DNA of 64,000 nucleotides from Bacteroidales bacterium. GTDB lineage: Bacteria > Bacteroidota > Bacteroidia > Bacteroidales > UBA12170. Positions 566 through 22,719 of this stretch are shown in pieces; the first letter of the stretch is position 1, and each line of letters opens with the position of its first letter. The notes under the pieces are model-generated. The model did not search any database. It was not told the DNA's origin and worked only from the letters and a program-made list of their open reading frames with translations. The stretch covers positions 3,845-67,844 of the forward strand of contig JAQIBR010000205.1 of the NCBI GenBank assembly GCA_027858955.1. The letters run 5' to 3'. Made by a program: the position numbers and the translations under genes.

Positions 566-572
566 AAAAAAT

Positions 573-654
573 CTTGGTGTGCCTTTGTGCTATCCTTAGC
601 GTGACTTAGTGGTAAAAAAATTAACCACAAAGTGCATCACAAAGGAGCACAAAG
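573..654. repeat. Periodic inverted heptamer array (CTTWGTG-like x4, then CACAAAG x3)
   Basis: Heptamers start at 573, 583, 595, 605 and inverted copies at 626, 638, 648, around a GTGGT/ACCAC stem. Confidence 0.7.
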
Positions 655-681
655 CTGACCAAAATTATAAATGCAATTACA

Positions 682-3948: not shown

Positions 3949-3967
3949 TAAAATGTGAGCGTTTTTT

Positions 3968-4060
3968 CTTTGAGCAACTCTGTGAGTTCTTTGAGAAGCT
4001 TTGTGTTACAGATTTTTAATGTAAAGTTTTGCCACAAAGTCGAACAGAGCATGCACAGAT
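3968..4060. repeat. Periodic inverted heptamer array (CTYTGWG x4, then MACARAK x3)
   Basis: Left heptamers at 3968, 3978, 3989, 3999 and right at 4033, 4043, 4054, with mirror spacing 10/11. Confidence 0.7.
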
Positions 4061-4076
4061 TAAAAATAATTGATTT

Positions 4077-4461
4077 TTATCTAAAATGAACCTCCATTTC
4101 TTTTAAGAAATCTTTATCAATCCTGCCTGCCGCTACATGGTAACTAATAGTTTCCATTTTGTATAAAAACCTTTGTGCAGCATCTAAATATCCATTTTTT
4201 AAGAGGAAAATACTTCCTAGAGAAATAGCAATCCGTTTGTTACCATCTTGAAAACAATGACTTTTATTTGCTGCAAAAAAAAAGATGGGTTAACTTGTCA
4301 ATAAAAGTTGGATAATATAGGTCATTTTGAACATGTTCAAGAGCTGCATCTAATGACCCGATATTTATAATACCAATAGCTCCACCTCCACTAATAGCAA
4401 TTGTCTTTTTGTGAATATTGATAACATCTTGTATGTCTGTAATGTAGATTATTGTATTCAT
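4077..4461 (-). pseudogene. Doc/Fic family toxin, frameshifted in a 9-nt homopolymer
   Basis: Removing one base from the A9 run at 4275-4283 joins the 65-aa ORF to FFAANKSHCFQDGNKRIAISLG...HFR* (stop 4077-4079), 127 aa in total. HxFxDGNKR is the Doc-type motif. Confidence 0.85.
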
Positions 4462-5461
4462 TCACTATCCTTTAACCTTTTAAAAACATCTTTAGCCTCT
4501 TCCAGTTGTTTTTCGAAATTCACACTTTGTTCTCCAAGGAATCTTTCAAAATCGGCAGGTGATATTGAATGTATATATTCTTCAAGTTTTTTATGGAATG
4601 CATCTCTAAAATGCAAATCTCTTGAAGCCATTTTAATTCGTGCATCTTCAATATGTGGACGTTGAAGTGGATGTTCCGAAAAATATATAAAAATCTCATC
4701 TATCTGGTGTGGTTGTAATTTGCGACCAACTTTCTTATAGCATTTTTCTATTTCGTATGCTATTCCTGTTTCAAATGAAGCAACTAGATTTAAAATCTCA
4801 GCATACATTGTATCACGTGCATTCTCTTTAGCTTCAAGTTTTAGTATTTGTTTGTACTCTTGGGCATTTTCTATAAATATGCTTTGGTAAATTTTATCAG
4901 TATATAAAGAATACTTATAATTTCCCATATCTACATATCTGCTTAATGTAGAGGTAAATTCTTTACGATACTTGCTTTCACGTATAGCTGTTGGTAAATA
5001 GTCTGAATCTTTCCGGTTTATATACTTTGTACCTCCACCTGTTCGGTCATTAATTGTTTCAATAACAATATCTAGCATTTTAGAGCGTAATAACTTGGCA
5101 TTATCACTTTCAGCTAAAAGCATTCCTAAATTCAAAAAAGCTCGAAAATTAAAAAGTCCAAGTTGGGTGGTTTTGCTCGGGACATTTATGACATGACCAA
5201 ATTGCAACTTTAAGTCTTTTAATTGTTTACCCTTACTTAAAATATATCCATTGTGTTTTAATTCGTGGTTATAATTCTCAAGATATCTTTTAATAGTTCT
5301 TTCATCAACCCCATAAAAGCCGCTACCATTTGAATGGTAAATTTATATTCTTCCTCAAATAACATTCCTGATAAACCTACATATTCTTGAATTTTTTCAA
5401 GTGCAAAACGGTTATTTAGAATATTTTGCCTGTCAATATTTGAATCTGTTAAGTTTTTCAT
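4458..5461 (-). pseudogene. Doc-associated DNA-binding protein (RhuM/KilA-like N-terminal HTH), frameshifted
   Basis: Adding one base to the A4 run at 5315-5318 fuses ORFs 5258-5461 and 4458-5207 (..VAAFYGVDERTIKRYLENYNHELKHNGY..), 334 aa. Its stop overlaps the doc start (ATGA). Confidence 0.8.
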
Positions 5462-5554: not shown

Positions 5555-6259
5555 TTAAACAAACTTCTCTCGCCTCTGCAAATTAACCATACTGCCTAAA
5601 ATGGCGATAACTGAAACGATAATAAGCATCAATCGGTTTTGATTAATCACATTCTGCCAAACGGTATGACTTAAATTAGACGGTGTATTCAATGGATTTA
5701 AGAAGATATTCCATTTGCTATATTCCAGAGGTTCAGCAAGTATAAAAAAGAACAGTCCAATAATGACCATAATTACTGCTGTGGCATTGGCATTCTTTAC
5801 CCATGTGGAAAAGAAAAAGGCCACACCGGCAATAAATAGCAGGGGATACATCAATTGATAGCTCAAGTAAAAAACGTGAACTTTAACCAAGGCGAAAACG
5901 GCGAACCAACTCATTAAAAGCAAAATTACAAACAAGAGTAATAAGCTGATGGCAAAGCGGAGAAGATAGACTTTATAACGGTAGTTTGGAACCCCAAATA
6001 TTATTTCGAGCATCCTGGCATCTTTATCATTTTGGATGCTGAAAATCACCGGATAAAAGATGACTAATATTCCAGGGAACAGGATGGTATTGTAGATCTC
6101 AAATTCCTGGACAGCATCATCATCAAATAACATAATGCCTATAATCATTAAATAAAAGGCCACAGCTGCGATTAAGAAGTAAATAAACTTACTTCCGAAA
6201 ACAATTTTTAGATTGTAAATCAAAGCATCTTTTACCAAATGTAGTTTTTCAAGTTTCAT
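5555..6259 (-). CDS. ABC-2-type membrane protein (about 6 TM)
   Basis: Hydrophobic 234 aa with an ABC-2-like TM pattern. It starts 2 bp after the RND-ATPase fusion stop. Confidence 0.65.
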   Translation of the reverse strand: MKLEKLHLVKDALIYNLKIVFGSKFIYFLIAAVAFYLMIIGIMLFDDDAVQEFEIYNTILFPGILVIFYPVIFSIQNDKDARMLEIIFGVPNYRYKVYLLRFAISLLLLFVILLLMSWFAVFALVKVHVFYLSYQLMYPLLFIAGVAFFFSTWVKNANATAVIMVIIGLFFFILAEPLEYSKWNIFLNPLNTPSNLSHTVWQNVINQNRLMLIIVSVIAILGSMVNLQRREKFV

Positions 6260-6261
6260 AT

Positions 6262-9200
6262 CTACAAGCCCCTTTTATTTGTGTTTAATAAACTTAAATA
6301 GGCATCTTCAAGATTGGCTTTTACAGATTTCGCATCCGCTGATGGAGCCTCATCAGCTAAACATCTTATGCGAATCTGATCGCCATCGCGCATGTGATGA
6401 ATTATCTTTAGATTGTCTTTTATATCATCAAATTCATCAGCTGGAATAGTCATCATCCAAACTTTGCCATCGGCTTTACCGGCCATATGAATAGGAGCAC
6501 CTAAATATTTTAGTTCGCCTTCTTTAATGACTGCCACACGATTACAAGAAGAGGCAACATCTTCGATAATATGTGTGGAGAAGATGACAATTCTTTCCTT
6601 GCTTAGTTCCACCAATAAATTACGGAAACGGATTCTCTCTCTTGGATCTAATCCGGCAGTTGGTTCATCTACAACAAGGATTCGAGGAAGATTCAGTAGA
6701 ATCTGGGCAATCCCAATACGTTGTTTCATTCCCCCTGAAAAGGAGCCTATCTTTTCGTTCCGATTGTCGAACATATGTACCGATTTTAGCACATAATCAA
6801 TCCTTTTTGAACGTTCTTCTTCATTATAAAGCTTTTTCAGAATACCCATATAATGCAAGAAATCGATGGCTTTCATATTTTCATACATGCCAAATTCCTG
6901 AGGGAGGTAACCGATCAAACCTTGCAGCTCTTCTCGTTTTTCTGAAACATCGATTCCATTGATGGTAATCTGACCATAACTTTGTTCCAATATTCCACAG
7001 ACAATGCGCATAAGTGTAGATTTACCAGCACCATTTGGACCTAGCAAGCCAAACATTCCTTTTTCTATGGTAAAGGAAACTCCTTTAACAGCTTTAAAGG
7101 GGACTTTCTTTTTTCCAATAATGGGGATGATTTTTACAAAGCGATAAAACGCCTTTCGGATGCCTTTAAACTTTCCTTTTAAGCGATTGACATTTACTTT
7201 TTCTTTATAAATTTTATCCGATGTAACCTTAATTAAAATAGCCAAATACCAAAGGAATCCCATCGGAATGATTAATCCAATCAAATCGTATTTTGCATTG
7301 AATAGATAGAGTGCAAAAGCAGGAAATCCCCAGAAAAGCATTTTGTAAGTGAACATAAACAAGAGCCTGATGAGCTTTCGTTTTTCCAAATCTTTAAGAT
7401 GCTGCGCATAGTGCTTGAATGGCGTTAAAATGCTTATAATAATTATATAAAGGAATACCGGTAAGAGAAAAGACCACAATCCGCTTTCTAAATGAAAATA
7501 GATGAAATAGATGCCAAAGGCGATTAACGGAAGTTGCCATAAGACTTGCTCAAAATCATTGATAGACTTGACTTCGTGAACTATACCAAGTCGTTTTCTG
7601 ATATTAATACCTGATTTCCATTCTCGTGTAAATTGACTGTCCCAATCGTAAATCTTAACCAGATTCCGAATATTAATAACCAAATCTTCATCTTCTCCGA
7701 TTAGCTTTTCTGAAGCCTGACGCAAACTGGTTTGTATAAAATATATAGTAACCGGAACACCGATAAGCAATACCAAATAGTCGATGAGTTGCCAGATTAT
7801 TGAATCGACTTCGGTATAGATGAGGTAGCCAAATCCTATATAAAGTACGCTCAGGATCAGCTTATTAGGGATTGATAATCCTTTTATCCATGCTAGTGAG
7901 CTTTGTAATCCAGAATATAAAGTTGGAATAAAAACCAGAGTCAGTATGGTGCTGATTGTTAGTCCGCCGATAACTGTAATTGCAAACGGCACACCGATTT
8001 GAGTTACATATTCGGCTTTGCCGAGAGCTAAAGGAATCAAGGCAATAATGGTGGTAATTGCCGTAATTAATATCGGCCTAACGCGAGCCAGTCCTGCCAT
8101 CATCAATGACCGGGTCTCGGTATATCCGCGTTTTTGGAGTACACGTGCATAATCGATCATAATAATCCCGTTATTCACCACAATTCCAAGCAAAATGAGG
8201 AAGCCTGTCAGCACATTTGCATTCATTAAGGATGTGCCCGTTAAGACCAATAATACCAATGAACCGATTGCTGCCAAAGGAATGGAAAACATCATCACCA
8301 CTGGAATTGTAAAGGATTCAAAAACTGATGCGAGTATCATATAAATCAAAACAAAAGCCATAAAGAGTAAGAAGCCAAATTCCGCCAATTGATTATCTTC
8401 ATGCTCAACTTCGATGGCCATATTTGAAGGTAGTTTTATCTTTTCAATGGTTTCATCAATCTCTAAACGAGCCGCTTCTAACAAATCATTGTCATCCGAA
8501 ATTTCAGATAAAAAAGAATAGGATAGCGTAAGTTGTTTTTCTTGATTGCTTCGGCGGATAGTGGACAGCCCTTGTGTAAAATTAAAACGACTAATATCTT
8601 GCATCTCAAAAGAGGTGCCCTGAGTTCCGCGTATATCCAGTTTTCGAAGATCGTCAACATTTCGTTCTTCTTGTTTATCATTACCAATGGTTTTGATGCG
8701 GATATCATAATCTTCCGTTCCTTGTTTAAAGGTAACACCGGTGGAGAACTCATGCTGGAAGGAATTTAATTCCGACATTACATTAGCTAAAGGAATATCA
8801 TAGGCAGCTAATAATTGCTTATCCATGTTAAGCTGAAGCTCCGGTCTCTTGTTTGGAATTCGGATATTGATGCGATTGATCGATGATAATTGCTCAATAT
8901 AGTATTTAACATCATTGGCCAGATTTAGCATCTGATCAAAATCTTGTCCTTTAATAATGATACTTTCGTTTTGGGAGCCTATTCCAAGAATGCTTCCAAA
9001 GTCATCTGCTTCATCGAAGCCACCATTTCCAAACCGACCACCAGAAGTAGGAGGGTCCCAGCTAAAATCGGCTAGAGGTAAATCGTCTATTTTCTCAAGG
9101 ATTTCATTTTTAATGGAAGGAATAGAAGAATTCCGAATCCCCTTATAGTCTTTTAAAAGCTTGATAGTTAATATGGCTTCTCCTTCATAAACCTGACTTA

Positions 9201-10977
9201 CAACATTCTCTTTTTCTTCTATTTCAATAATTTTTTTCTCTGCTTCGCGAATGATTAAATCAGTATTTTCAAGGGTAGTACCACTAGGTAAGGTGGCATA
9301 AAGGGTTAAATCTCTAAGCTCTGCTTCCTGATTACTCACTGCACTCAATGAAATACTTAATAATAAGGTGACAAAGAATAAACCCAGAGCTCCCATTACC
9401 GTTTTCCCAGGATTACGCATGCAAGTTTTTAAAAAGACAAAATAGATCTGAATGAGACGGTTATGATGATCAATATTTTCAAAGCAGACTGGTTTTGTAT
9501 CTTTTTTCAGGACAAGGAAAAAGTGAGTAACCATAGGCACCAAAAATAAGGCGACGGCCAAGGATACTACTAAAGTCGAAATAATAGAAACGCCAATGTT
9601 TTTTCCTAATATTCCAACAAAGAAATTGGTTGAGAATACGAAGGGTAAAAAGACCATAATTGTGGTCAAAGTAGCAGCGAATATCGAACGCCAAACTTCC
9701 TTTGTTCCTTGAATTACCGCTTGATCAGGATGCATTTTTTTAGCAGCCAGCCTGTAGATGTTTTCCAGTACCACAACACTATTGTCAAGGAGCATTCCAA
9801 TGGCTAAAGCCATGCCTAAAAGCGTTAAACTATTCAGGCTGATTTCTGCTGCGTAAAAGAAGTTAAATGCAGTAAAAACGGAGATAGGTATAGCCAGCGC
9901 AATAGCAGTAACCAATCGGATGTTCCGCAGAAAAATCCACAAAATAAAAATAGCTAATATTCCTCCAACCATCGCCAATTGCATGATAAGATCGATATTG
10001 TTTTCCATGGTTTCGGCCGTATTGGTTTGAATAACCAATTCAACATCTTTGTCGGCCAAAGCTTTATTTAGTACTGCAATCTGTTCTTTTACATCATCGG
10101 CTAAATCGATGATATTTGATTGAGCATCTCGTGTAAGCTGTATCGTAACAGCATCCATTCCGTTAACCCTACTGTAGGAATCTTCTTCGATAACTCCAAA
10201 ATTAATTTCAGCAATATCTTTTAATCGGATGGATCCTTGTTCTTTAATAATCAATTCATAGATGTCGGTGATATCATCAAATTCAGAAACCACATTTACG
10301 AAATGCAATTGATTGTTTTTTGTGACTTTCCCGGTAAAGACCCTGGCTCTGCTATTACTATTTAAAGCTGTACGAACATCTGCGGGACTGATGTCGTAGG
10401 CTTCACAAACGTCTTCTTTAAGTGTAATTTCGATGGATTTGTCGCGACCCCCAAATACTTCAGCATTGGCAACCCCTTCAATATTCTTCAGTTTATTGAT
10501 GATTTCTTTTTCCACTACCTGACGAACCCGATCAACGCCACCACTGCCTCGAACCTGAAGACTCATAAACATATTGTTCAAAGTCTCCAAATCGAATTTG
10601 AAAACATTGACAATAAATTCTTCAGGGATATTCTTTTTGGTTTCATCAATCTTCTCTACCAATTTTAGATAGGCATATTTGATATTGGTAGACTGCCTGA
10701 AACTGATACGGATATTGCCGCTTTGTTGTCCTGCAGTGGATTCAATTTTTTCAACGCCTTCCAATCCCCCAATGGCTCCTTCCAGTGGGATGATTGCCTG
10801 GCTTTCCATATAGCGCGGATCAACCTCGAGACCGGTATTTACTTGCACAAACAACATCGGTAGGGTTGCGTTCGGGTACAACTCCACATCCAGCTGCTTA
10901 TAGGAAAAATACCCCAACATGGTCAATGCTGTGAAGACCATGAGAATTAGGGTTTTTCTTTTTATGATAAAGTTCAT
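6262..10977 (-). CDS. AcrB-family RND permease fused to a C-terminal ABC ATPase (1571 aa)
   Basis: RND motifs GMLLDNSVVVLENI, GIVVNNGIIMID and RVRPILITAITT are followed by GPNGAGKS, FSGGMKQR, ILVVDEPTAG and IFSTH. Confidence 0.9.
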   Translation of the reverse strand: MNFIIKRKTLILMVFTALTMLGYFSYKQLDVELYPNATLPMLFVQVNTGLEVDPRYMESQAIIPLEGAIGGLEGVEKIESTAGQQSGNIRISFRQSTNIKYAYLKLVEKIDETKKNIPEEFIVNVFKFDLETLNNMFMSLQVRGSGGVDRVRQVVEKEIINKLKNIEGVANAEVFGGRDKSIEITLKEDVCEAYDISPADVRTALNSNSRARVFTGKVTKNNQLHFVNVVSEFDDITDIYELIIKEQGSIRLKDIAEINFGVIEEDSYSRVNGMDAVTIQLTRDAQSNIIDLADDVKEQIAVLNKALADKDVELVIQTNTAETMENNIDLIMQLAMVGGILAIFILWIFLRNIRLVTAIALAIPISVFTAFNFFYAAEISLNSLTLLGMALAIGMLLDNSVVVLENIYRLAAKKMHPDQAVIQGTKEVWRSIFAATLTTIMVFLPFVFSTNFFVGILGKNIGVSIISTLVVSLAVALFLVPMVTHFFLVLKKDTKPVCFENIDHHNRLIQIYFVFLKTCMRNPGKTVMGALGLFFVTLLLSISLSAVSNQEAELRDLTLYATLPSGTTLENTDLIIREAEKKIIEIEEKENVVSQVYEGEAILTIKLLKDYKGIRNSSIPSIKNEILEKIDDLPLADFSWDPPTSGGRFGNGGFDEADDFGSILGIGSQNESIIIKGQDFDQMLNLANDVKYYIEQLSSINRINIRIPNKRPELQLNMDKQLLAAYDIPLANVMSELNSFQHEFSTGVTFKQGTEDYDIRIKTIGNDKQEERNVDDLRKLDIRGTQGTSFEMQDISRFNFTQGLSTIRRSNQEKQLTLSYSFLSEISDDNDLLEAARLEIDETIEKIKLPSNMAIEVEHEDNQLAEFGFLLFMAFVLIYMILASVFESFTIPVVMMFSIPLAAIGSLVLLVLTGTSLMNANVLTGFLILLGIVVNNGIIMIDYARVLQKRGYTETRSLMMAGLARVRPILITAITTIIALIPLALGKAEYVTQIGVPFAITVIGGLTISTILTLVFIPTLYSGLQSSLAWIKGLSIPNKLILSVLYIGFGYLIYTEVDSIIWQLIDYLVLLIGVPVTIYFIQTSLRQASEKLIGEDEDLVINIRNLVKIYDWDSQFTREWKSGINIRKRLGIVHEVKSINDFEQVLWQLPLIAFGIYFIYFHLESGLWSFLLPVFLYIIIISILTPFKHYAQHLKDLEKRKLIRLLFMFTYKMLFWGFPAFALYLFNAKYDLIGLIIPMGFLWYLAILIKVTSDKIYKEKVNVNRLKGKFKGIRKAFYRFVKIIPIIGKKKVPFKAVKGVSFTIEKGMFGLLGPNGAGKSTLMRIVCGILEQSYGQITINGIDVSEKREELQGLIGYLPQEFGMYENMKAIDFLHYMGILKKLYNEEERSKRIDYVLKSVHMFDNRNEKIGSFSGGMKQRIGIAQILLNLPRILVVDEPTAGLDPRERIRFRNLLVELSKERIVIFSTHIIEDVASSCNRVAVIKEGELKYLGAPIHMAGKADGKVWMMTIPADEFDDIKDNLKIIHHMRDGDQIRIRCLADEAPSADAKSVKANLEDAYLSLLNTNKRGL

Positions 10978-11010: not shown

Positions 11011-14000
11011 TTATAAATCAATTTTTGTGAACCGGTCCTTTGTTGATTCAAATACATAATACACAGAAGGAATAACCACCAGGGTGAGCAGGGTAGAAGT
11101 TATTAATCCTCCAATAACTGCTATCGCCATAGGTGAACGTAAAGCCACGCTATCTCCAAAACCAATTGTTAGTGGTAATAGTGCAAGAATTGTAGTAACA
11201 CTAGTCATAAAAATTGGACGAATTCGATTTTCTCCTGCATTGATTATGGCGTCTTTTAGCGATAAGCCTTTTGCTTTGAATTTATTGATGGCATCCACCA
11301 AAATAATGGAATCGTTTACTGCAATTCCGGCTAACATGATTATCCCGATAAAGGCCATAATATTTAATGACTGACCCAGAAGGAAGAAAGCCCAAATGGC
11401 ACCCACGCCTGCCAATGGTATCGTTAATAAAATCGTAAATGGATGAATCAGGGATTCGAATTGAGATGCCATGACCATATAAACCAGTACTATGGATAAA
11501 ATTAATGCAAAGCCTAAGTTAGACATTGCTTCTTGCCTTTTTTGCTCTTCGCCAATCACATCTACCTGATATCCTTGTGGAATATCCATAGCCCCAATGA
11601 TGGCATCAACTTTTGCAATTGCCTGATCAAAAGCAATATCTTGTGAGATATCCGCGCTGATTTTGCTGATTCTATTTTGATTTCTACGGTGCAATTGCTT
11701 TGGAGATACAGATTCTTCAATATGTGCAAGCTCATAAAGCGGCACATAGTTGGAGCCACTACGAAGCTGGATATTGTTAAAATCGTATAAAGTTAACTCT
11801 GGCAAACGTAGTGTGATATCATTCATTTCACCCGATTGTTCATATTTTCCAGCATTTTTGCCCATGAGCAAATCTTTCAATTGTCCGCTAATATTATCTA
11901 CAGTCAGATTATGCATGGCAGCATTTTGTCGGTCGATAACAACGTCAATTTCGGGAGCACCTTCTTCAATAGAAGTTTCCAGATTCTGCAATTCGGGAAT
12001 ATTGGCCAATTGATTTTTTATATTATTTGAAATTTCCTCGAGTATATCAAGATCATCTCCTTTAACTTCGACCAATAAAGGAGCTTCATTGGTTCCCATT
12101 GTTGATTGAATGGCTGTTTCATCGCGTATGATTTGAATTTCTGCATCCGGAATATTTTCAAGTAAGCTTGATAGACTCGTGATAATTGTTTCCGATTGCT
12201 CGATTGCATCCTTTACCAAACGAACTTTTATGCTTGCTGTATTTTCGTTCTGGAAAACAGACTTATCTGTAGCAGTACCATCGGTTGGACCAATTTGGCT
12301 AAACACTAAATCGATGTTCTCTCCCAAAGCTTCTGTAATAAGATATTCGATGGAAGCAGTGGTGGAAACTGTTCGTTGTAGCTGTGTTCCTTCTTTTAAT
12401 TTTATCTCGATACTGAATTCTCCAGTCCCGCTTTTTGGCAGATACTCGCTTCCAACAAAGGGCAGTATTGCATAAGTTCCTCCTATCATGAGAAGGGCCA
12501 CTATAATTACAAGAACTCTTTGTTCAATAATTTTTGCCAGGAGTTTGCCATACCACCCAATGCGAATGGATTTGATTTCGTTTGGCTTGCTTGCTTTTTT
12601 TCGATAGGCCCAATTGAAAAGCATAGGAATTACTAAAATGGCTACAAATAGTGAAGCGAGCAAAGAGAAAGCCACGGTCCAGGCCTGATCTTTAAATAAA
12701 GCTCCCGAAGCACCATGAAGATAAACGATAGGAAGAAATACGACAATGGTGGTTAAGGTAGAAGCCGTAATCGCACCGGCAACTTCTGCTGTCCCGGATA
12801 TAGCTGCTTCTTTTACCGACATGCCTTGTTCCATATTTCGGAAGATATTCTCCATCACTACGATGGCATTGTCCACCAGCATTCCGGCCCCCAAGGCTAA
12901 ACCTCCCAAGGTCATGATATTTAGGCTTAGTCCATTAAAATACATCAGGTTAAATGTGGCAATAACAGATATAGGAATTGCAAAGGCGATGATTAGTGTA
13001 ACTTTTATTCTCCTCAAGAAAATAAAGAGTACAAACACCGCGATTAGTATCCCGATTAAGGCAGTTTCTTCGACTTCATCAATTGATTTTTGAATAAAAT
13101 CGCCCTGATTTTGCACCGTGATAAATTGATATCCTGGCAAAGCTTTACTTATTCCAATTAATGCTTCATTAAGATTTTTTACGGCAGTTACCGTATTGAA
13201 ACCTGTTTCTTTAAATATGGATAATCCAACACAGCGTTGTCCGTTGATACGGACGATATTTTTTGGGTCTTTATTTACAAAACTGACTTTAGCAATATCT
13301 TTTAGATAGACCGGTACTTTGTCTGCAACGGTAGCTTGTTGATTTTCTGATTGTGATGAAGAAGCTGTAGGAGCTTTATAGCTGACGATGATATTTTTAA
13401 GAGCATCAAGGTCTTCAACCAAACTACTCCCTTTAATAATGTATTTTTTCCCCATCTCAACAACAGTACCGCCACTAACACTACGGTTCATATTTTGAAT
13501 CTGGCTTACTACTTGATTTACACTTAATCCATGAGCATCCAAAAGGTAAGCTTCGGTTTCGATTAAAACTTCTTTTTCTTCGGTTCCAGTCAGGTTTACT
13601 TCAGCAATTCCTTCCAGTCGGATTAACTCATTTCGGATGTAGTTTTCTCCAACTTTACGGAGTTCATCCATATCGCTAATGGTGGGATTCAACATCCCAA
13701 TTGTCATTATGGGAGAAGCATTCGGATCGTGTTGGGTGATGGTAAATTCATCGATAGTAGACATTTGACTGTAGGTAGTCATTGCTTTTTGCAAGTCTAA
13801 AAAGGCTTCGTCCATATCCGTTCCCCAACTGTATTCAACGGTCACACGTGCCGATCCAACCATACAAACAGAAGAGACCTGAATAACGCCTTTTTGTCGG
13901 ATAGCCTGGGATTCTATACTTTCTATATACTGTTTCTCGATTTCTTCAGGTGGTTGTTCGCCAGCATTGATCTCAACAAAAATTCGGGGGGCATTCATCT

Positions 14001-14118
14001 CGGGCAACAAATTGACGCTTAGCTTGCTGAATGAAATATAGCCAAGCAAAAGAATCGCTAGTACCATCATGGAGACCGTTACCGGATAATTGACAGAAAA
14101 TTGAGTTATCTTCTTCAT
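11011..14118 (-). CDS. AcrB/AcrD/AcrF-family RND permease
   Basis: 1035 aa with GMLVDNAIVVMENI, RIRPIFMTSVTT and GGLITSTLLTLVVIP. Confidence 0.92.
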   Translation of the reverse strand: MKKITQFSVNYPVTVSMMVLAILLLGYISFSKLSVNLLPEMNAPRIFVEINAGEQPPEEIEKQYIESIESQAIRQKGVIQVSSVCMVGSARVTVEYSWGTDMDEAFLDLQKAMTTYSQMSTIDEFTITQHDPNASPIMTIGMLNPTISDMDELRKVGENYIRNELIRLEGIAEVNLTGTEEKEVLIETEAYLLDAHGLSVNQVVSQIQNMNRSVSGGTVVEMGKKYIIKGSSLVEDLDALKNIIVSYKAPTASSSQSENQQATVADKVPVYLKDIAKVSFVNKDPKNIVRINGQRCVGLSIFKETGFNTVTAVKNLNEALIGISKALPGYQFITVQNQGDFIQKSIDEVEETALIGILIAVFVLFIFLRRIKVTLIIAFAIPISVIATFNLMYFNGLSLNIMTLGGLALGAGMLVDNAIVVMENIFRNMEQGMSVKEAAISGTAEVAGAITASTLTTIVVFLPIVYLHGASGALFKDQAWTVAFSLLASLFVAILVIPMLFNWAYRKKASKPNEIKSIRIGWYGKLLAKIIEQRVLVIIVALLMIGGTYAILPFVGSEYLPKSGTGEFSIEIKLKEGTQLQRTVSTTASIEYLITEALGENIDLVFSQIGPTDGTATDKSVFQNENTASIKVRLVKDAIEQSETIITSLSSLLENIPDAEIQIIRDETAIQSTMGTNEAPLLVEVKGDDLDILEEISNNIKNQLANIPELQNLETSIEEGAPEIDVVIDRQNAAMHNLTVDNISGQLKDLLMGKNAGKYEQSGEMNDITLRLPELTLYDFNNIQLRSGSNYVPLYELAHIEESVSPKQLHRRNQNRISKISADISQDIAFDQAIAKVDAIIGAMDIPQGYQVDVIGEEQKRQEAMSNLGFALILSIVLVYMVMASQFESLIHPFTILLTIPLAGVGAIWAFFLLGQSLNIMAFIGIIMLAGIAVNDSIILVDAINKFKAKGLSLKDAIINAGENRIRPIFMTSVTTILALLPLTIGFGDSVALRSPMAIAVIGGLITSTLLTLVVIPSVYYVFESTKDRFTKIDL

Positions 14119-14181: not shown

Positions 14182-15231
14182 TTATTTTACAATTTTAACT
14201 TTAGAGCGATCACGAAGGGTTTCAAATCCTTTGATAACCAAACGGTCGTTTTCGCTCAAGCCACTAATGACTTGAACATTATCAGGATTTTCCAAACCGA
14301 AAGTAATAATGCGTTCTTCGGCAAGTCCTTTGTTAATGACAAAAACAGTATTTCCTTTTTGTTTTGATAAGATGTATTCCTTTGGGATGACAATCGTATT
14401 TTCAGCTTTAGAAATTATGATTTCGCTCTTGGTAAACATGCCCGGCAATAGGATCAAATCTTTATTGCTTATGTTTAAAACGGCTTTGAATGAAAGTGTT
14501 TCCGGGTCGAAGGAAGGCGAGATTTGGGCGATTATTCCCTTTAGGGTATCGTCTGGTAAAGTGTAATTCATTATTCTTACTTCCTGCCCTGTATTAATTG
14601 TTTTAAAGTTTTTGCCAGCCAGGTTGACTTCCATAAATAATTCGCTGTAATCCATTATTTTAATAACGTCTTGACCAGTTGCGATTTGGGTTTTTGGTGT
14701 ATAATAGGGTAGCTCAACAATTACACCGGTAAATGGTGCTACAACTGCCATTTTCTCCAGCTGAATAAGTGCATTGTCTAAATTATTTTGAGCATTGATA
14801 TAGGCGATTTCGGAGTCTTTCACATCTTTTTGAGTTACTCCGCCTTTTTCGAAAAGTGATTTTTGTTTTTCGTAAACTTGTTTGCTGATATCTAAACTCA
14901 GTTTTAGGGAGTTATGTTTGATGTTGTTTAGGTATTCTTTATTTTCAACTAACAGAACCACATCATTTTCTTTCACTTTATCACCCAATGCATATTTTTT
15001 TCCGGTTGCGGGATTGATTTGTAAATTATATATACCGCTGATTTCTGTTTTTAAAGTGGTTTCCTTTAGCGGTTTCACGGTGCCTGTTGTGCTAATATAT
15101 TTTTCAATAGATTGCGGTTTAATTTCAAGCACAGAGACTGGTATTGAGATGTCTTTATTCAAATCTCGCTCATCATCATTGCAAGAACTGAATACCAGGA
15201 TGGCTACTAAAAATACGAAAAATCGTTTCAT
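14182..15231 (-). CDS. RND efflux periplasmic adaptor (MFP) lipoprotein
   Basis: Lipobox LVFSSC, lipoyl/hairpin pattern (VVAPFTGVIV) and C-terminal VISGLSENDRLVIKG. Likely start is ATG 15231; the ORF track gives 15261. Confidence 0.9.
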   Translation of the reverse strand: MKRFFVFLVAILVFSSCNDDERDLNKDISIPVSVLEIKPQSIEKYISTTGTVKPLKETTLKTEISGIYNLQINPATGKKYALGDKVKENDVVLLVENKEYLNNIKHNSLKLSLDISKQVYEKQKSLFEKGGVTQKDVKDSEIAYINAQNNLDNALIQLEKMAVVAPFTGVIVELPYYTPKTQIATGQDVIKIMDYSELFMEVNLAGKNFKTINTGQEVRIMNYTLPDDTLKGIIAQISPSFDPETLSFKAVLNISNKDLILLPGMFTKSEIIISKAENTIVIPKEYILSKQKGNTVFVINKGLAEERIITFGLENPDNVQVISGLSENDRLVIKGFETLRDRSKVKIVK

Positions 15232-15306
15232 GGTATTAAATTTATAAAGTGTGTATTTCATGATATTTTCTTTTATCGATTTGCTCTAATTAATAAAACT
15301 GTCAGC

Positions 15307-16809
15307 TTAATTATCTTCATTGATTGGACTGCTCATATTACTTTGTAACTCTTGTGAAATAAAAGAACGGTTATTTTCAAAATCCCAAAGCGATTGAATT
15401 TTAAGGTTCAATAATTCCAATTTATAATTGATTAAAGCATTGGCTCTGTTCATTTTCTTTTCGGATAACTGATTTTGGAAACGCTCCAAATCTATACTTG
15501 TTAAATCACCATTTCGAAAGCGTTCTAAATTGATATCGTAGGTCATTTCTGCGTTCCTTACATTTTGATCGGCTATTCCAATCTGACGAATTAAATTATT
15601 CAGATTGCGATATACTTTTCGAATATTGATGATGATATCATTTTCAAGATCTTTCAGATCAATTTTGGTAGATTCTAAGGAAAGCTCCGCTGCTTTAATT
15701 CTTGCTTTGCGTGCGCCCCAATCAAAAAGTGGGATAGAGAAAGTAATATTTGCCTGAGGGCTTTTGGTGGGTTTATCATAAACATCGGTTAAAACGGGAT
15801 CATTTCCCATCATTCCCATCGATAAGCTTACATCGCCTCTAAATTTATTATTCGCGCTAGTTTGAATTAAATCGAACTGAGCATAAGTAATGCTGATTTC
15901 TTTTTGTTGAAGTTCCAATCTTTGTTTTAATCCGTTCTCAACTGCCTGGTCAAGATTGACAGGGACTTCTTTGTATTGGATATCAGCAATCACTTCTATT
16001 TCTTCATTAAGTGAAATTCCTAATAACCTTTTAAAATCATCTTTAGAGTTTTCAAGCGCTACTTTCTGGTCTTCAAGATTTGAGCTCGATGTTGCATAAT
16101 TTAATTCTGCCTGAAATAATTCTTCTCTGGCCAATAGATCACCTTCAACTTTACTTTCCACAATACTTCTGCTTACTTTTTGATTTTCAAAGTCTTCAAT
16201 CGCAATTTGTAAGGACATTTGTTTTTGATAAATATCGTAAAATGCTTGAGAAACATATTTTTCCATATTCAACATTTCGATGGAATATGCTAACGTCGCA
16301 TTCTCTAGATTAAGTTGATTGCGCTCCAAGTTCATCTTTGTTTGATTGTAGACAAAGAGGGGTTGAACATACTGCAAATACAAATTATTACTAAAGCCTT
16401 TATCTGCAATTTCAATTCCACCCGTCCCTGAAACATTATCATAATATTCAAATCGATTGATGAGCGACAAAGTACCATCAAAAATTTTAATGGGTTGTGA
16501 AACAGATAATTGCCCTGATGATTTCATCGATTCGCTTGAATACCATGCTGACCTAAGCTCATCGTAAGAATCCTGATTTACATAAGAGAAAGGTGTAATA
16601 TCAAAGGCAAATCTCGATTTTAAAGAAGCAAGTTGCGCATTCAAAAGCTCTTTATTTTGCTCCATATTCAATCTGGAACGTTTAATATCCGGACTGTTTT
16701 CAAAAGCAATATCCAAAGCTTCTTCCAAAGTTACTTTTTGTTGCGAAAAGCCTGGAGCACTTAGGCCAGCAATCAAGCAGGTGATGAAGAGCAGTTTTGT
16801 GAATTTCAT
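15307..16809 (-). CDS. TolC-family outer membrane factor
   Basis: Signal peptide, SIPLFDWG motif and helical repeats, adjacent to the MFP and RND genes. Confidence 0.9.
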   Translation of the reverse strand: MKFTKLLFITCLIAGLSAPGFSQQKVTLEEALDIAFENSPDIKRSRLNMEQNKELLNAQLASLKSRFAFDITPFSYVNQDSYDELRSAWYSSESMKSSGQLSVSQPIKIFDGTLSLINRFEYYDNVSGTGGIEIADKGFSNNLYLQYVQPLFVYNQTKMNLERNQLNLENATLAYSIEMLNMEKYVSQAFYDIYQKQMSLQIAIEDFENQKVSRSIVESKVEGDLLAREELFQAELNYATSSSNLEDQKVALENSKDDFKRLLGISLNEEIEVIADIQYKEVPVNLDQAVENGLKQRLELQQKEISITYAQFDLIQTSANNKFRGDVSLSMGMMGNDPVLTDVYDKPTKSPQANITFSIPLFDWGARKARIKAAELSLESTKIDLKDLENDIIINIRKVYRNLNNLIRQIGIADQNVRNAEMTYDINLERFRNGDLTSIDLERFQNQLSEKKMNRANALINYKLELLNLKIQSLWDFENNRSFISQELQSNMSSPINEDN

Positions 16810-16834: not shown

Positions 16835-19800
16835 TTAATTCTTTATCCATTTAATAGCGTCGGCAGAAATCATCATGCCTTTTGATTTATTGGTCATATC
16901 AACAATTGATGTTTCGGGTGTAATGAAGAAAGTCCCCATATAATTCCATCCACTTTCTACATCTTTATCAAGTAATGTAATGTCTTCAATGCCATCTTCG
17001 TGATGTATTCTAAAATTGAAACTTGCATTGTTGTTTCTGCTTCTACCATTTCTCCTAAAACTAACATTTATCTTTTCGATGTGGCAATAGATATCGTAAT
17101 AAGCTGGTTCTGTTATTTCAGCATTCCAGGTCGCCGTTCTATTACCTTCTCCTGATGCAGTGTACAAAGCAGATCTAACATATTTACCGTAATATCCAGA
17201 TCGAACTACTGCGGTCCATCTTGATGGCGGACTCCACCAGCGAATTCCCTGGTATTTATAGCCTTCTTTTCTGCTCTTGTCAACTAAAGATTTTAAATAG
17301 CTGAGATTTAAATCCTCAAAATAGGTGAATCCTTCATCCTCATTGTCAACGATAATAGCATTTGGCTCATCTAAATTTGCAAAGAATTCAGTTGATCTTT
17401 TACCTTCAAAACCTTTTCCTTTACGAATATCATCACTACCCTCTAAGTCGTAAATCAGATTATTAGGAAGGTTCTCGGAAATGTGTGTAAAGAAATTAAT
17501 CCGAGTGGGCTCATTATTGAATATATAACCAAACTCAATAGCTTTTCCTGCAGGAATATGAATTTTTTGTGTGAAATCCGGAAGCACTTGATTGTCTTCA
17601 TTTCTAGTTTCTTGGTTTTCCATATCCGCAATGAAAGTAATGAGGCCATCAACAGGTTCTGGATTGGCAATTTTAAAAGTAACTTGATATTTGGTATAAT
17701 CTCCATCCATCACTTTAAAAGATTCAATATCCTTAATTAAAAAGCCAGGTAATTTTTTTGTTTCATACCAATCTGCTATTTCAGTTGTGATATTACTCTT
17801 GAATTGTTTTTCGAACACTTCATTTAAATCTTCAAAAGAATAGCTTTGATGCTGATGATTCTCAACAAATTGATTTAAGACGGCATTGAATTCAGCTGTT
17901 CCGTATCGGGCTCTGAATAAACTAAATAAATGATCTCCTTTTGCTTGTATGATATCGTTTAGGCTAATTTGTTCATCAAAATCAAGCGTTTTGTCACGTA
18001 TTTCTAATCCGGAAATAAGCAATTCCTGAAGTGAAGCATCTTTCAGCTCTAAATTAATACGCTCTCCTTTATTGATATCGGTAAAGAACCAGCGATAACT
18101 AGACACAACATTAGAATTCCGTTCTTTAAGATAAATACCTAGAGAAAGATCCAGCATAGGCCATTTTTCACTTCTCAATTGGCTAATAAAATTGTAATAA
18201 TTAGGAAATATAGTGAAGGAATTTCGATCCATTATTTCTTCATACTGGTACCATTCCTGATGATTTGCCATATAATTACCTCGGACAAATCGCTTGAAAA
18301 TTCTCTCTTGAATATCTTGTGGTGTTACTTCTTCATTATCCCTTTCCATACGTCTTTCGAATCGGATTTTACGACTTCTAAAATCAGTTTCTTCTAGGGT
18401 AACTCCTTTTTCAGGGTAAAAAATGATTTCGGGCTGTACCGCGTCGCTGGCAATGGAATATATGTGTTTATCCAAAGCAAAGTGTACTGGAACTTCTGCC
18501 ATAAACAAGCGTTTAAACGGGTAGGTCAGGCCAATGGCTGTTTCGTATTCATTCTTCAAATCGCGAATCATCCCCGGTAGGCTATCTGAAATATCCGTGA
18601 AGTGCTGTGTAAAGAATTCATTTCCCTTAATGGCATAAATTCCATATTCGATGGAGTCTACTGTTAGGCTGTATTTCTGATAATCGCCAATTAACAAACT
18701 AAGTTGCGTTAATGGAAATTCAGGTTCAAAAGTAAATTCGCCTGCTGCATCAGAACTCTGGGCGCCTTGTGAAATAGCCACCAGATTGTCGCTTGTAATT
18801 ACCTTAAGATTAAAATTTGTAAAATCCGGGGCGTAGTAAGCGGGCCTAACAGTTGTATAGCTTACACCTGCCGTTGGATACCATAGGGATTCCCTAGTTA
18901 AGCATACAAAGTCTTCGTTTAGATAGGCAAAGCGTTTACGGACTCTAAAGATTTCAATATTAAAATCGTTTTTAAATTCTTCGGGATCTAAATCAAGAAA
19001 ATGCGTGCGTTCATCAATACCTCCTTCGTAGTCGAAACTTAGTTCATGAGTGGATAGTTCGGAAATGGCATTTGGAAGAATTAAACGAATAAGATGCAAG
19101 TCTCGTACAAAATCAATCGCTTGATCATCGAGCTTTACAGCTCTTATTTTTAACAAGGGATTCAGATTGAAAATTAAAGTATCGATGATGGTCCCGGAAT
19201 TATTCTGTATAATTAAATCGGACTGCATCTGGATGCTTTCTCCTTTGTGGTTTAAAACGATAGTGTTTTCTATAACATCCACTTTGGTTTTGAAAGCATA
19301 TTGATTGTTCAGGGCAATCATTTCTTGCTTGAGCTCAATGGTATCTTCTTTTAAGCTGATATATTTGTTAATCAATACCCCACCGAATGCAAGGAAAATG
19401 ATACCTATAATAAGAGGAAGTGATGTTAGTTTTTTTGATTGAGGCAAGCGATTAATCTTGAATATGGTAATGAAGATCAATCCCAGGCCAAGAAAGAAAT
19501 AGATGCTTCTGTGAATCACGATTTCATTTAGGTTTCCAAAACCAGCAATTTCGGAATTCATCATGGGTACTGTATAGGCTATAAAATCGAATAAATGATA
19601 CAGTTTATTATTTAAATAGAAGATGGTTAATGCAATATAACCGAGCAGAATAATAAATGTAATGGCTTGATTTTTAAAAAGTATCATCATGCTGAAGGAC
19701 AATCCCAGAATAAAAACAAGTGTTGGCAAACTAATGAGTAGAGGGTATAAAAAGAGCTGACCTAATCCAAGGGAAGAATCACTTGCGAGAAAAGAAAACC

Positions 19801-20191
19801 CGATTCCCACCAATAAAAGGATAAGGTTGAGAATTATAAAAACATAAAGGATGCCTATTGATTTCCCAATGATATATTCTGCATTTGTCATTGAGCGTGC
19901 ATAAATAACTTCAACGGTATCGTTTTTGCGATCTTGCTTCAAAAATTCCGAAGCTAAAAATACAGCCACTATGGCTTGACCAAGATTTAAGATTAGAAGA
20001 TTTACATAAGCGATATTTCCCGGTAATGCTCTATACAACCATGGTGCACCGCTGGATTCGACAAAAATAGCTGCATTAAAAATACCTAAAAAGACAATGG
20101 AAAGCCCTGCAAAAATCCGAAAGAACCAGGAGCGGAGCAGGGTCTTCATCTCAAAGCGAGCAATCGTATTTATTTTTTTTATTGAGAGCAT
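16835..20191 (-). CDS. ABC-2 permease fused to a large extracytoplasmic region (M1-peptidase-like, no HExxH) and a C-terminal golvesin/xanthan-lyase-CBM-like module
   Basis: About 6 N-terminal TMs (EMKTLLRSWFFR..., DTVEVIYARSMTNAEYIIGK), then WYPTAG, then C-terminal YDIYCH...GWNYMGTF...ADAIKW. Domain names come from motif recognition. Confidence 0.65.
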   Translation of the reverse strand: MLSIKKINTIARFEMKTLLRSWFFRIFAGLSIVFLGIFNAAIFVESSGAPWLYRALPGNIAYVNLLILNLGQAIVAVFLASEFLKQDRKNDTVEVIYARSMTNAEYIIGKSIGILYVFIILNLILLLVGIGFSFLASDSSLGLGQLFLYPLLISLPTLVFILGLSFSMMILFKNQAITFIILLGYIALTIFYLNNKLYHLFDFIAYTVPMMNSEIAGFGNLNEIVIHRSIYFFLGLGLIFITIFKINRLPQSKKLTSLPLIIGIIFLAFGGVLINKYISLKEDTIELKQEMIALNNQYAFKTKVDVIENTIVLNHKGESIQMQSDLIIQNNSGTIIDTLIFNLNPLLKIRAVKLDDQAIDFVRDLHLIRLILPNAISELSTHELSFDYEGGIDERTHFLDLDPEEFKNDFNIEIFRVRKRFAYLNEDFVCLTRESLWYPTAGVSYTTVRPAYYAPDFTNFNLKVITSDNLVAISQGAQSSDAAGEFTFEPEFPLTQLSLLIGDYQKYSLTVDSIEYGIYAIKGNEFFTQHFTDISDSLPGMIRDLKNEYETAIGLTYPFKRLFMAEVPVHFALDKHIYSIASDAVQPEIIFYPEKGVTLEETDFRSRKIRFERRMERDNEEVTPQDIQERIFKRFVRGNYMANHQEWYQYEEIMDRNSFTIFPNYYNFISQLRSEKWPMLDLSLGIYLKERNSNVVSSYRWFFTDINKGERINLELKDASLQELLISGLEIRDKTLDFDEQISLNDIIQAKGDHLFSLFRARYGTAEFNAVLNQFVENHQHQSYSFEDLNEVFEKQFKSNITTEIADWYETKKLPGFLIKDIESFKVMDGDYTKYQVTFKIANPEPVDGLITFIADMENQETRNEDNQVLPDFTQKIHIPAGKAIEFGYIFNNEPTRINFFTHISENLPNNLIYDLEGSDDIRKGKGFEGKRSTEFFANLDEPNAIIVDNEDEGFTYFEDLNLSYLKSLVDKSRKEGYKYQGIRWWSPPSRWTAVVRSGYYGKYVRSALYTASGEGNRTATWNAEITEPAYYDIYCHIEKINVSFRRNGRSRNNNASFNFRIHHEDGIEDITLLDKDVESGWNYMGTFFITPETSIVDMTNKSKGMMISADAIKWIKN

Positions 20192-20218: not shown

Positions 20219-21103
20219 TTACTTGTGATTTGTTAAATGTTCCATATAATAGACATAGGCATGTTCAAGGTTTGGTTCGATCTCAATGGCATTGCTGGCT
20301 TCAATATTGTCGCCAACCAATTGAACTTCCCATCCATCCTCTGTCGGAATAGTTGAAATGACTGCGTATTTTTCTTTCAGCATATCGTATTCGTATCCAG
20401 AGGCTGTTACTTGCCAAACATGTCCTTTTGTTTTAGCAATAAGCTCTTCTGGAGAACCTGTAAACTCAACAAATCCGTTGTTCAATAAGGCCAGATTATT
20501 ACAGCCACTCGAAATATCGCCAACAATATGTGTTGATAAAACGATAATGACATCTTTCTGACTCAGTTCGGATAAAATATTACGAAATCGGATACGTTCT
20601 TCAGGATCGAGGCCTGTAGTTGGTTCATCGACGACGATAATTTTCGGATCTCCAATTAAAGCTTGAGCAATACCAAGTCGTCTTTTCATACCGCCTGAAA
20701 GATTGTTTGCATCACGATCGCGGAAATCAAATAAGCCAACTTTTTCCAGCCATTCATCAACTTTGGCTGATCGTACTTTTTTCTGATTCAGTCCGGAAAG
20801 TCCAGCAGCATAGTCTAAGAATTCCCAGGTTTTAAGTTTGGTGAAAAAGCGGAAGTCTTGAGGTAGATAGCCTAACATTTGCCGAATTTCCTTTCTATTT
20901 TTAATCAGATCGAAATTATCTATTTTTACACTTCCTGCGCTTGGCAAAAGCATAGTTACAAGTATGCGCATCAAACTAGATTTCCCTGCGCCATTTGGCC
21001 CTAATAACCCAAACATTCCACTGCCAATTTCCAGATTTATATCAGAAAGAGCTTTCTTGCCGTTGCTATAAACCTGACTTAAATTGTTAATTTCGATCTT
21101 CAT
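20219..21103 (-). CDS. ABC transporter ATP-binding protein
   Basis: GPNGAGKS, LSGGMKRR, IIVVDEPTTG, LSTH. Confidence 0.93.
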   Translation of the reverse strand: MKIEINNLSQVYSNGKKALSDINLEIGSGMFGLLGPNGAGKSSLMRILVTMLLPSAGSVKIDNFDLIKNRKEIRQMLGYLPQDFRFFTKLKTWEFLDYAAGLSGLNQKKVRSAKVDEWLEKVGLFDFRDRDANNLSGGMKRRLGIAQALIGDPKIIVVDEPTTGLDPEERIRFRNILSELSQKDVIIVLSTHIVGDISSGCNNLALLNNGFVEFTGSPEELIAKTKGHVWQVTASGYEYDMLKEKYAVISTIPTEDGWEVQLVGDNIEASNAIEIEPNLEHAYVYYMEHLTNHK

Positions 21104-22697: not shown

Positions 22698-22719
22698 GGT
22701 TTTAAAATAAATTAGCGAA

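Follow-up and report, generated by a model that had tools for sequence, protein, structure and literature searches.

Can the polypeptide chain of an ATP-binding cassette (ABC) nucleotide-binding domain (NBD) leave the domain after its first strand, pass through the membrane and return to complete the same fold? NBDs are usually viewed as compact soluble cassettes whose sole contact with the membrane domains is made through non-covalent coupling helices. The question is raised by a gene of a Bacteroidales bacterium located in a 64,000-nucleotide stretch of contig JAQIBR010000205.1 (NCBI GenBank assembly GCA_027858955.1, positions 3,845 to 67,844 of the forward strand), the whole of which is referred to here as the window. 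The product of the gene consists of a transporter of the resistance-nodulation-division (RND) type followed in order by two transmembrane (TM) helices, a strand and A-loop resembling those that open an NBD, a predicted four-TM insert, the remainder of the NBD and a C-terminal domain (Table 1). An earlier note made from the sequence alone proposed that a membrane insert splits the NBD between its first two beta-strands (beta1 and beta2), a topology that it called very unusual. The best explanation overall, which we hold to be moderately probable, is a split NBD that is completed by the displaced beta1, an accessory membrane domain that docks a separate permease, and an exporter tied in this way to an RND pump.

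The probable displaced beta1 strand and A-loop

The earlier note likened the peptide LVINIRNLVKIYD of the fusion protein to the start of a free ABC ATPase encoded in the same gene cluster, and the likeness is borne out. The free ATPase is a protein of 294 residues with the N-terminus MKIEINNLSQVYS. In the fusion, the second NBD segment FKAVKGVSFTIEKGMFGLLGPNGAGKS (7098-7018, minus strand) lies in the same open reading frame (ORF) as LVINIRNLVKIYD and begins at residue 1294, which leaves a gap of 182 residues (1112-1293) where about 180 had been estimated. The A-loop candidate Y1110, a conserved tyrosine after a beta1-like strand, is located 203 residues ahead of the Walker A glycine G1313, a distance that amounts to 23 residues in the free ATPase and is expected to be about 25. 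BLASTP aligns the fusion NBD with residues 17-284 of the 294 of the free ATPase at 42% identity; the alignment leaves out beta1 and takes in the C-terminal extension, which the two proteins have in common as had been claimed. In the Pfam and NCBIfam NBD profiles the match begins at position 1-3 for the free ATPase but no earlier than position 14-15 or so for the fusion, and the contiguous fusion NBD thus lacks beta1 and the A-loop. The profile matches offer no alternative candidate for beta1 or for the A-loop aromatic within this contiguous part.

When the N-terminal sequences of 35 free ATPases that belong to the same class are turned into a position-specific scoring matrix (PSSM), the best position in the whole fusion protein is residue 1099. 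Shuffled sequences equal this score in 26% of cases, and the single-sequence match is not significant alone and was not used alone. Among homologs the aligned beta1 is the top PSSM match out of approximately 1270 positions preceding the NBD in 64 of 66 proteins, where it lies 190-235 residues ahead of Walker A, and it is this recurrence at the aligned site that takes the match beyond chance. Over 67 sequences, the most distant at about 27% identity, K1108 never varies and the conservation of Y1110 is 90% or higher. In close homologs the conservation of the strand is 0.88, compared with about 0.7 for its flanks and 0.91 for the NBD core. Y1110 is located where ABC domains have their A-loop aromatic. 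This residue stacks on the adenine (PMC9867378).

The structure of residues 1025-1571 was modelled as a monomer with AlphaFold2 (AF2) from a 67-sequence alignment (predicted local distance difference test, pLDDT, 88.8; predicted TM-score, pTM, 0.75). Residues 1101-1110 form a ten-residue strand in this model (E77-86, pLDDT of about 90). The strand is preceded by the helices TM13 (1036-1056) and TM14 (1060-1089), and is followed by a basic helix (1115-1129), four helices across 1139-1259, a second basic helix (1271-1283) and the NBD, which opens with strands 1294-1304 and 1307-1312. The remaining strands all belong to the NBD or to the C-terminal domain. Since DSSP strands need a beta-ladder and no other strands exist, the upstream strand is laddered onto the NBD or C-terminal domain of the model, and the DSSP assignment suggests that beta1 pairs with beta2. 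In the free ATPase, modelled as a control (pLDDT 95.3; elements E3-11, E17-26, E29-34, H41-48 onward), beta1 stands immediately ahead of beta2. The elements of the two models map one to one in order with a constant offset of 254, apart from beta1 (E3-11), to which the displaced strand corresponds. As far as conservation and modelling can tell, the upstream strand belongs to the NBD and rejoins it, which is the point on which the earlier proposal depended.

Table 1. Features of the fusion gene, its gene cluster and its short-loop relatives. Positions are those of the window, except in the last row, where they are those of the named loci.
Feature	Position	Strand	Residues and remarks	Basis
Whole fusion gene	6262..10977	(-)	1571 codons/aa; stop codon 6262-6264	
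RND (AcrB-like) transporter domain	7906..10977	(-)	1-1024; 12 TM helices	Pfam ACR_tran
Two extra TM helices after RND TM12	7711..7872	(-)	TM13 1036-1056; TM14 1060-1089	AF2
Displaced NBD beta1 strand and A-loop, LVINIRNLVKIYD	7645..7683	(-)	1099-1111, including K1108 and Y1110	Conservation, PSSM, AF2
Basic amphipathic helix after the A-loop, QFTREWKSGINIRKR	7591..7635	(-)	1115-1129	AF2 helix H91-105
Four predicted TM helices within the NBD	7201..7563	(-)	1139-1162, 1166-1197, 1201-1230, 1233-1259	AF2, Hessa-type scores, hydropathy
Basic helix re-entering the NBD, KGIRKAFYRFVKI	7129..7167	(-)	1271-1283	AF2 helix H247-259
NBD core from beta2	6478..7098	(-)	1294-1500	Pfam ABC_tran, motifs
C-terminal beta-rich domain	6265..6477	(-)	1501-1571; common to the free ATPase	BLASTP, AF2
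ABC-2-type permease	5555..6259	(-)	234 aa, 6 TM; 2 nt after the fusion stop codon	
Unfused RND paralog (RND1)	11011..14118	(-)	1035 aa; directly upstream; keeps TM10 Asp	ACR_tran E 8.6e-216
Membrane-fusion lipoprotein (MFP)	14182..15261	(-)		Pfam HlyD_D23/HlyD_3
Outer-membrane factor (OMF)	15307..16809	(-)		Pfam OEP
1118-aa protein	16835..20191	(-)	7 N-terminal TM segments, M1-peptidase-like/Golvesin_C parts; second gene of cluster	
Free ABC ATPase	20219..21103	(-)	294 aa; first gene of cluster	
Short-loop RND-NBD fusions	L082 601-4878; L083 2276-6547; L085 6001-10326; L090 1109-5464		Second class of fusion	

The predicted membrane insert and accessory helices

The insert had been estimated to hold about four hydrophobic helices, and AF2 indeed predicts four, which are 24-32 residues long, have a pLDDT of 86-94 and are connected by turns of 2-3 residues. 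With Hessa-type hydrophobicity values (Hessa et al. 2005), the scores of the four segments range from -1.3 to +3.9 kcal/mol, much like those of the 12 RND TM helices in this protein (-3.0 to +3.4), and the NBD has no segment with a score of 4 or below. Upstream of beta1, TM13 and TM14 correspond to the AF2 helices H12-32 and H36-65 (pLDDT 83-95). The four hydrophobic peaks of the insert and the two that precede beta1 are kept in 40 distant homologs of less than 55% identity. The charge pattern is likewise conserved in these proteins and follows the positive-inside rule, K and R being frequent in the loops that should face the cytoplasm and scarce in the remaining turns; the hydrophobic insert is conserved in these homologs, which the earlier note had left to an alignment to decide.

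The C-terminus of RND transporters is cytoplasmic, as known from AcrB. As the helix counts from the cytoplasmic end of RND TM12 are even (2 + 4), beta1 and beta2 would both be located in the cytoplasm. The chain leaves beta1 through the basic amphipathic helix QFTREWKSGINIRKR, which has a K/R fraction of 0.30-0.34 in distant homologs and a conserved REW motif, and it re-enters the NBD through the basic helix KGIRKAFYRFVKI, after which comes the conserved IGKKKxPF. The linker region matches no Pfam family, and a PDB sequence search found no solved relative of it. The idea that the accessory helices are an ABC-2 transmembrane domain (TMD) in disguise was rejected on an hhalign probability of 0.4% between linker and permease.

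The NBD core and the C-terminal domain

The statement that the NBD retains its Walker A, Walker B, signature and H-loop motifs proves correct. Walker A (1313-1320), Q-loop (1358-1361), signature (1413-1420, FSGGMKQR), Walker B (1433-1440, ILVVDE), D-loop (1441-1444) and H-loop (H1469) were all located and are invariant in the 67 sequences. Pfam ABC_tran (PF00005) matches residues 1298-1441 with an E-value of 2.5e-29 and 103 bits against a cut-off of 25. With all motifs intact, the ATPase is predicted to be catalytically competent. The elements E482-516 of the C-terminal domain in the AF2 model correspond to E229-263 in the control model of the free ATPase.

In a Foldseek search with the NBD and C-terminal domain, the closest structures are TM_1403 (4yer), LptB, TM0544 (1vpl) and NosF. 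The top fold match, 4yer, has an E-value of 1e-20 and a TM-score of 0.75-0.78 on the target; its alignment of about 274 columns covers only the contiguous part of the domain and is silent on beta1. A sequence search of the PDB returns the NBDs of ABCA4, ABCA3 and ABCA1 as the nearest matches, together with 1vpl and 4yer. These nearest relatives by fold and by sequence place the NBD in the ABC-2/type V class. The best NCBIfam matches of the NBD are GldA and DrrA, both of which score below the equivalog and subfamily cut-offs.

The RND domain and its putative proton relay

The N-terminal part of the fusion has twelve hydrophobic segments on the Hessa-type scale and matches Pfam ACR_tran (PF00873) over residues 2-1022, covering profile positions 3-1018 of 1021 with an E-value of 4.9e-156 and 521.6 bits against a cut-off of 28. 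It does not reach any curated NCBIfam cut-off for an RND subfamily or equivalog, scoring 457.8 bits against a cut-off of 1250 for RND_permease_2, 263 against 1774 for MdtC and 257 against 1584 for MdtB. D398 in TM4 and R967 in TM11 are conserved in the fused as well as the unfused RND proteins. The two differ in TM10, where the fused protein has N936 (8170-8172, minus strand) in the motif IVVN-N-G. This column holds N in 43, P in eight, G in one and D in one of 53 homologs, compared with Asp in 38 of 40 orthologs of the unfused RND protein encoded upstream. In AcrB a Lys occupies the position that neighbours the TM10 Asp. Judged by these residues, the fused RND domain may have lost part of its proton relay.

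The fusion family and its gene cluster

Between the RND and ABC matches of the fusion protein there are approximately 270 residues to which Pfam gives no assignment, and the whole arrangement is found in many other genomes. There are at least 120 full-length homologs of 1544-1591 residues with 67-100% identity, which come from many sources including cultured Marinifilum, Labilibaculum and Ancylomarina. Residues 1025-1571, used as the query against 1.84 billion cluster representatives, yield about 40 clusters (50% identity) that have the whole C-terminal architecture and reach down to about 27-35% identity. Genomes were also scanned, one per species, with a search pattern taken from a 5-sequence alignment, the conserved motif P[IVF]IGK[KR][KH]xPF. 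Of 500 stretches that matched the pattern, 419 encode a relative; the 80 best loci were kept and used for the gene-content counts. Among related loci, 67 of 68 have the RND part, linker and NBD in a single frame.

Among the cluster representatives, proteins of about 500-540 aa appeared to be candidates for stand-alone, unfused versions. The one inspected, a homolog of 526 aa (P0133, L081 1-1645), spans TM13 to the NBD and is encoded at the end of a short contig of 2.4 kb. A fragment or a broken gene is the likeliest reading, ahead of a naturally unfused version, and an assembly error is another candidate. Public records name members of the family variously as 'efflux RND transporter permease subunit', 'ABC transporter ATP-binding protein' or 'ATP-binding cassette domain-containing protein', and a double name is given only by JGI. 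No description of the fusion architecture was found in the searchable literature on RND-ABC fusions and on split or interrupted NBDs. What is new is the 182-residue insertion with four TM helices in combination with the fusion to an RND transporter.

The fusion gene is part of a cluster of seven genes that runs from 21103 to 5555 with spacings of 2-63 nt. The permease encoded immediately downstream has six predicted TM segments, and a profile search of the PDB gave no relative of it. The same neighbours accompany the fusion elsewhere: a 6-TM permease of the ABC-2 type follows it in 67 of 68 loci, an unfused RND paralog precedes it in 64 of 65, and genes for a membrane-fusion protein (63/63) and an outer-membrane factor (62/62) are present wherever counted. 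The best 80 loci carry Bacteroidales or Bacteroidota-type labels with the exception of a single 3.5-kb contig labelled Candidatus Neomarinimicrobiota, and more distant clusters have members labelled Gammaproteobacteria (OM182 group) and Latescibacterota. Locus L088 (of P0139, from the cluster with Latescibacterota-labelled members) repeats the gene cluster together with the leading ATPase and the large protein, which is about 1120 aa long there, but its called genes do not include one for an outer-membrane factor. The free ATPase and the large protein lie in L088 at 400-4680, ahead of the genes for the MFP, RND protein, fusion and permease. Since this pair precedes the RND genes there too, the two ABC systems appear to be functionally linked. 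In locus L087 (of P0204, from the cluster with gammaproteobacterial members) the downstream gene encodes 224 aa and is a homolog of the permease (hhalign 92%).

Several neighbouring genes of the window lie outside the cluster. An ORF of 249 aa (4458-5207, minus strand) located 347 nt downstream of the permease has no Pfam match and is probably not part of the operon. On the opposite strand to the efflux cluster, 26-3948 (+) contains a 179-aa ORF with the C-terminal part of ABC_tran (profile positions 28-136 of 137) and then one for a protein of 1088 aa that bears two FtsX-type permease domains, and the pair resembles an ABC system of the MacB/LolE kind. Upstream of the efflux cluster, 21489-24144 (-) encodes a HydF-type GTPase (HydF_dimer/HydF_tetramer) and a radical-SAM/BATS protein. 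These look like genes of [FeFe]-hydrogenase maturation, the presence of which suggests an anaerobe.

Long-loop and short-loop fusions

RND-NBD fusions occur in a second class, represented by four clusters of proteins of 1423-1451 aa that retain the beta1/A-loop motif. The loop between beta1 and beta2 measures only 22-47 residues in these proteins and has no hydrophobic segment, and TM13-14 are missing as well. None of the four short-loop loci has an adjoining ABC-2 permease, and the RND domain is the sole obvious membrane partner of the NBD. The TM10 position is occupied by N or S. The long-loop members are accompanied by the downstream permease in the 67 of 68 loci counted above and also in L088 and L087. 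The insert, TM13-14 and the permease thus occur together or are all absent, and it is mainly on this ground that the six helices are taken as a single accessory membrane domain associated with the permease.

Comparison with known systems

Type V ABC exporters carry a short gate-helix insertion right after the A-loop tyrosine, and in Wzt and TarH this helix reaches toward the membrane, contacts the TMD, rearranges with the nucleotide and is essential (PMC13018209). Like the ATPases of Wzm-Wzt and TarGH, the fusion NBD belongs to the ABC-2/type V class, and its insert starts at the same site, with W1112 two residues past Y1110; the loops of the short-loop relatives are of gate-helix size. Unlike the gate helix, which has about 23 residues and is interfacial, the insert of the fusion has 182 residues and four predicted TM helices. 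The NBD is in addition joined to an RND transporter, and the operon has RND, MFP and OMF genes and none for polysaccharide or glycan synthesis. As type V exporters have their gate-helix insertion exactly there, the topology of the fusion can be understood as the extreme form of an insertion that this permissive site is known to accept. The QFTREWKSGINIRKR helix is possibly the counterpart of the gate helix.

An extra segment is also found in NBD1 of CFTR, where the regulatory insertion (RI) lies between beta1/A-loop and beta2. The RI comprises residues 405-436 (PMC3776845). It illustrates that ATP binding is kept when this site accepts an insertion. Unlike the insert of the fusion, the RI is disordered and soluble with a length of about 32 residues, contains a phosphorylation site, is not embedded in the membrane and stabilises the domain when removed. 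The gate helix of Wzt/TarH and the RI of CFTR occupy the same region, which makes the site both permissive and functionally important. The topology is accordingly very unusual with respect to the four-TM, 182-residue insert, of which no description was found, and less so with respect to the insertion site, for which Wzt/TarH and CFTR provide precedent.

The RND genes are reminiscent of MdtBC in that tandem RND paralog genes follow a single MFP gene, in that the fused RND domain has its best NCBIfam matches at equivalog level to MdtC and MdtB, and in that the paralogs differ at a putative proton-relay residue. The scores are however far under the MdtB and MdtC cut-offs, and one of the paralogs bears six extra TM helices and an NBD. 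In MacAB-TolC and other tripartite pumps driven by an ABC ATPase, the efflux operon likewise combines this ATPase with an MFP and an outer-membrane factor. The NBD of MacB is fused to its own 4-TM FtsX-type domain without an RND transporter, whereas the ATPase of the fusion is attached to an RND transporter and has an ABC-2 permease as its putative TMD partner. TM_1403, an ABC-2-class ATPase with a C-terminal domain, is the best fold match of the fusion NBD, and TM0544 of the same class is among its best bacterial sequence matches; both are stand-alone soluble subunits with contiguous beta1 and beta2.

Proposed mechanism and alternatives

According to sequence and model, the C-terminal third of the fusion makes up one complete NBD of the ABC-2/type V class. 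The chain would exit the NBD after Y1110, cross the membrane four times and re-enter at beta2, while beta1 and the A-loop would fold back on the NBD and complete the ATP site. The co-occurrence of the insert, TM13-14 and the permease suggests that TM13-14 unite with the four helices of the insert in a six-helix accessory membrane domain, which would anchor the NBD to the membrane at three points and dock the separately encoded 6-TM ABC-2 permease. With less certainty, a dimer of NBDs and a dimer of permeases would constitute an ATP-driven exporter or flippase tied to a tripartite RND pump composed of RND1, the fused RND protein, the MFP and the OMF. Substrate from the cytoplasm or the inner leaflet would then, again less certainly, be passed straight to the RND pump and expelled across the outer membrane. 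NBDs must dimerise, and it can be speculated that a heterotrimer of two fused and one unfused protomer supplies exactly two. The insert may also couple the nucleotide state of the A-loop to the membrane domain, because it occupies the gate-helix site of Wzt/TarH.

Several observations weigh against this explanation or parts of it. Covariation between beta1 and the NBD (mutual information with average product correction, 251 sequences, effective number about 79) gives top partners that are scattered and barely exceed the 99.9th percentile. The docking of beta1 rests on DSSP and on AF2, which may place a recognisable motif by learned habit. TM13 and two of the insert helices are marginally hydrophobic, and their insertion into the membrane is a prediction. 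The permease has only a weak match to ABC2_membrane_3 here (E 5.7e-4, 19.5 bits against a cut-off of 31.6), a family that 17 of 36 permease orthologs match with a best E-value of 2.5e-7. Its contact with the accessory helices is proposed from co-occurrence, and hhalign gives 0.4% for homology of the two. The short-loop relatives combine NBD and RND without an ABC permease nearby, and the NBD may address the RND transporter itself in these proteins. The two-stage hand-over and the 2:1 stoichiometry are purely conjectural.

The chance that a frameshift, a misassembly or a gene-calling error merged separate genes is practically nil. P0133 could be cited in its favour, as this homolog on a 2.4-kb contig starts 14 codons past an in-frame stop, but the contiguous frame in 67 of 68 independent genomes, the full-length proteins of similar size from various sources and the same architecture across about 40 clusters have already refuted an artefact. 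It is also very unlikely that the insert is a peripheral or soluble helical bundle that rests on the NBD or on the cytoplasmic side of the membrane. Two of its four segments are marginal at +3.4 and +3.9 kcal/mol and one contains a lysine, K1212, which would suit such a bundle; the scores nevertheless lie in the range spanned by the protein's own RND TM helices and have no equal in the NBD, the helices are 24-32 residues long with very short turns, and in the 40 distant homologs the hydrophobic peaks are separated in turn by loops rich and poor in K/R. Somewhat more room, although it is still improbable, has to be given to a beta1-like strand that does not complete its own NBD in cis and is instead swapped to a neighbouring protomer or is a relic. 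The 182-residue tether permits an arrangement in trans, the model is that of a monomer only, covariation shows no clear signal between beta1 and beta2, and the single-sequence motif match is not significant. Conversely, a relic would hardly keep an invariant K1108, a near-invariant Y1110 and a strand conserved above its flanks; AF2 places the strand confidently in cis, and the contiguous NBD offers neither another beta1 nor another A-loop aromatic.

A different division of labour is conceivable in which the NBD acts on the RND transporter itself, as its motor or its gate, by way of beta1, the A-loop and the six helices, the fused protomer being coupled to ATP rather than to protons and the permease being accessory. 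We consider this rather unlikely. It would account for N936 in the fused RND protein (D in 1 of 53) next to a partner with Asp in 38 of 40, for the N or S at TM10 of the four short-loop fusions that have no adjoining ABC-type permease, and for an NBD that is covalently continuous with RND TM12 through TM13-14. However, an ABC-2 permease follows in 67 of 68 long-loop loci, as in an ordinary pair of NBD and TMD, and an RND trimer does not match the symmetry of an NBD dimer. The weight of the TM10 Asp in this RND subfamily is moreover putative, with a neighbouring Lys in AcrB, and we know of no ATP-driven RND transporter. In a more elaborate form of ATP coupling, which is unlikely, two ATP-coupled fused protomers and one proton-coupled unfused protomer would assemble into a heterotrimer with an NBD dimer beneath it. 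ATP-driven closure of this dimer would be passed through beta1, the A-loop and the six helices to the transmembrane domain of the RND transporter, and ATP and the proton-motive force would both serve to power or gate the one tripartite pump. The split NBD whose accessory domain docks the ABC-2 permease is preferred to these alternatives.

Implications

The NBD-bearing chain is also a full RND transporter, which places an ATP-coupled and a proton-coupled transporter, one primary and the other secondary, on a single polypeptide encoded by one gene. The fusion family is widespread, and it raises the questions whether two-stage efflux from the cytoplasm to the periplasm and on to the outside is hard-wired in one machine, whether the mismatch between threefold and twofold symmetry has found a solution here, and whether the gate-helix site can serve as a mechanical transmission element. 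If the heterotrimer coupled to ATP were true, the TM insert at the A-loop would convert nucleotide binding into movement of a membrane domain. In a conserved family, the chain of an NBD appears to be threaded four times through the membrane at the residue that binds adenine, and the ATP site would thereby be covalently wired to a membrane bundle.

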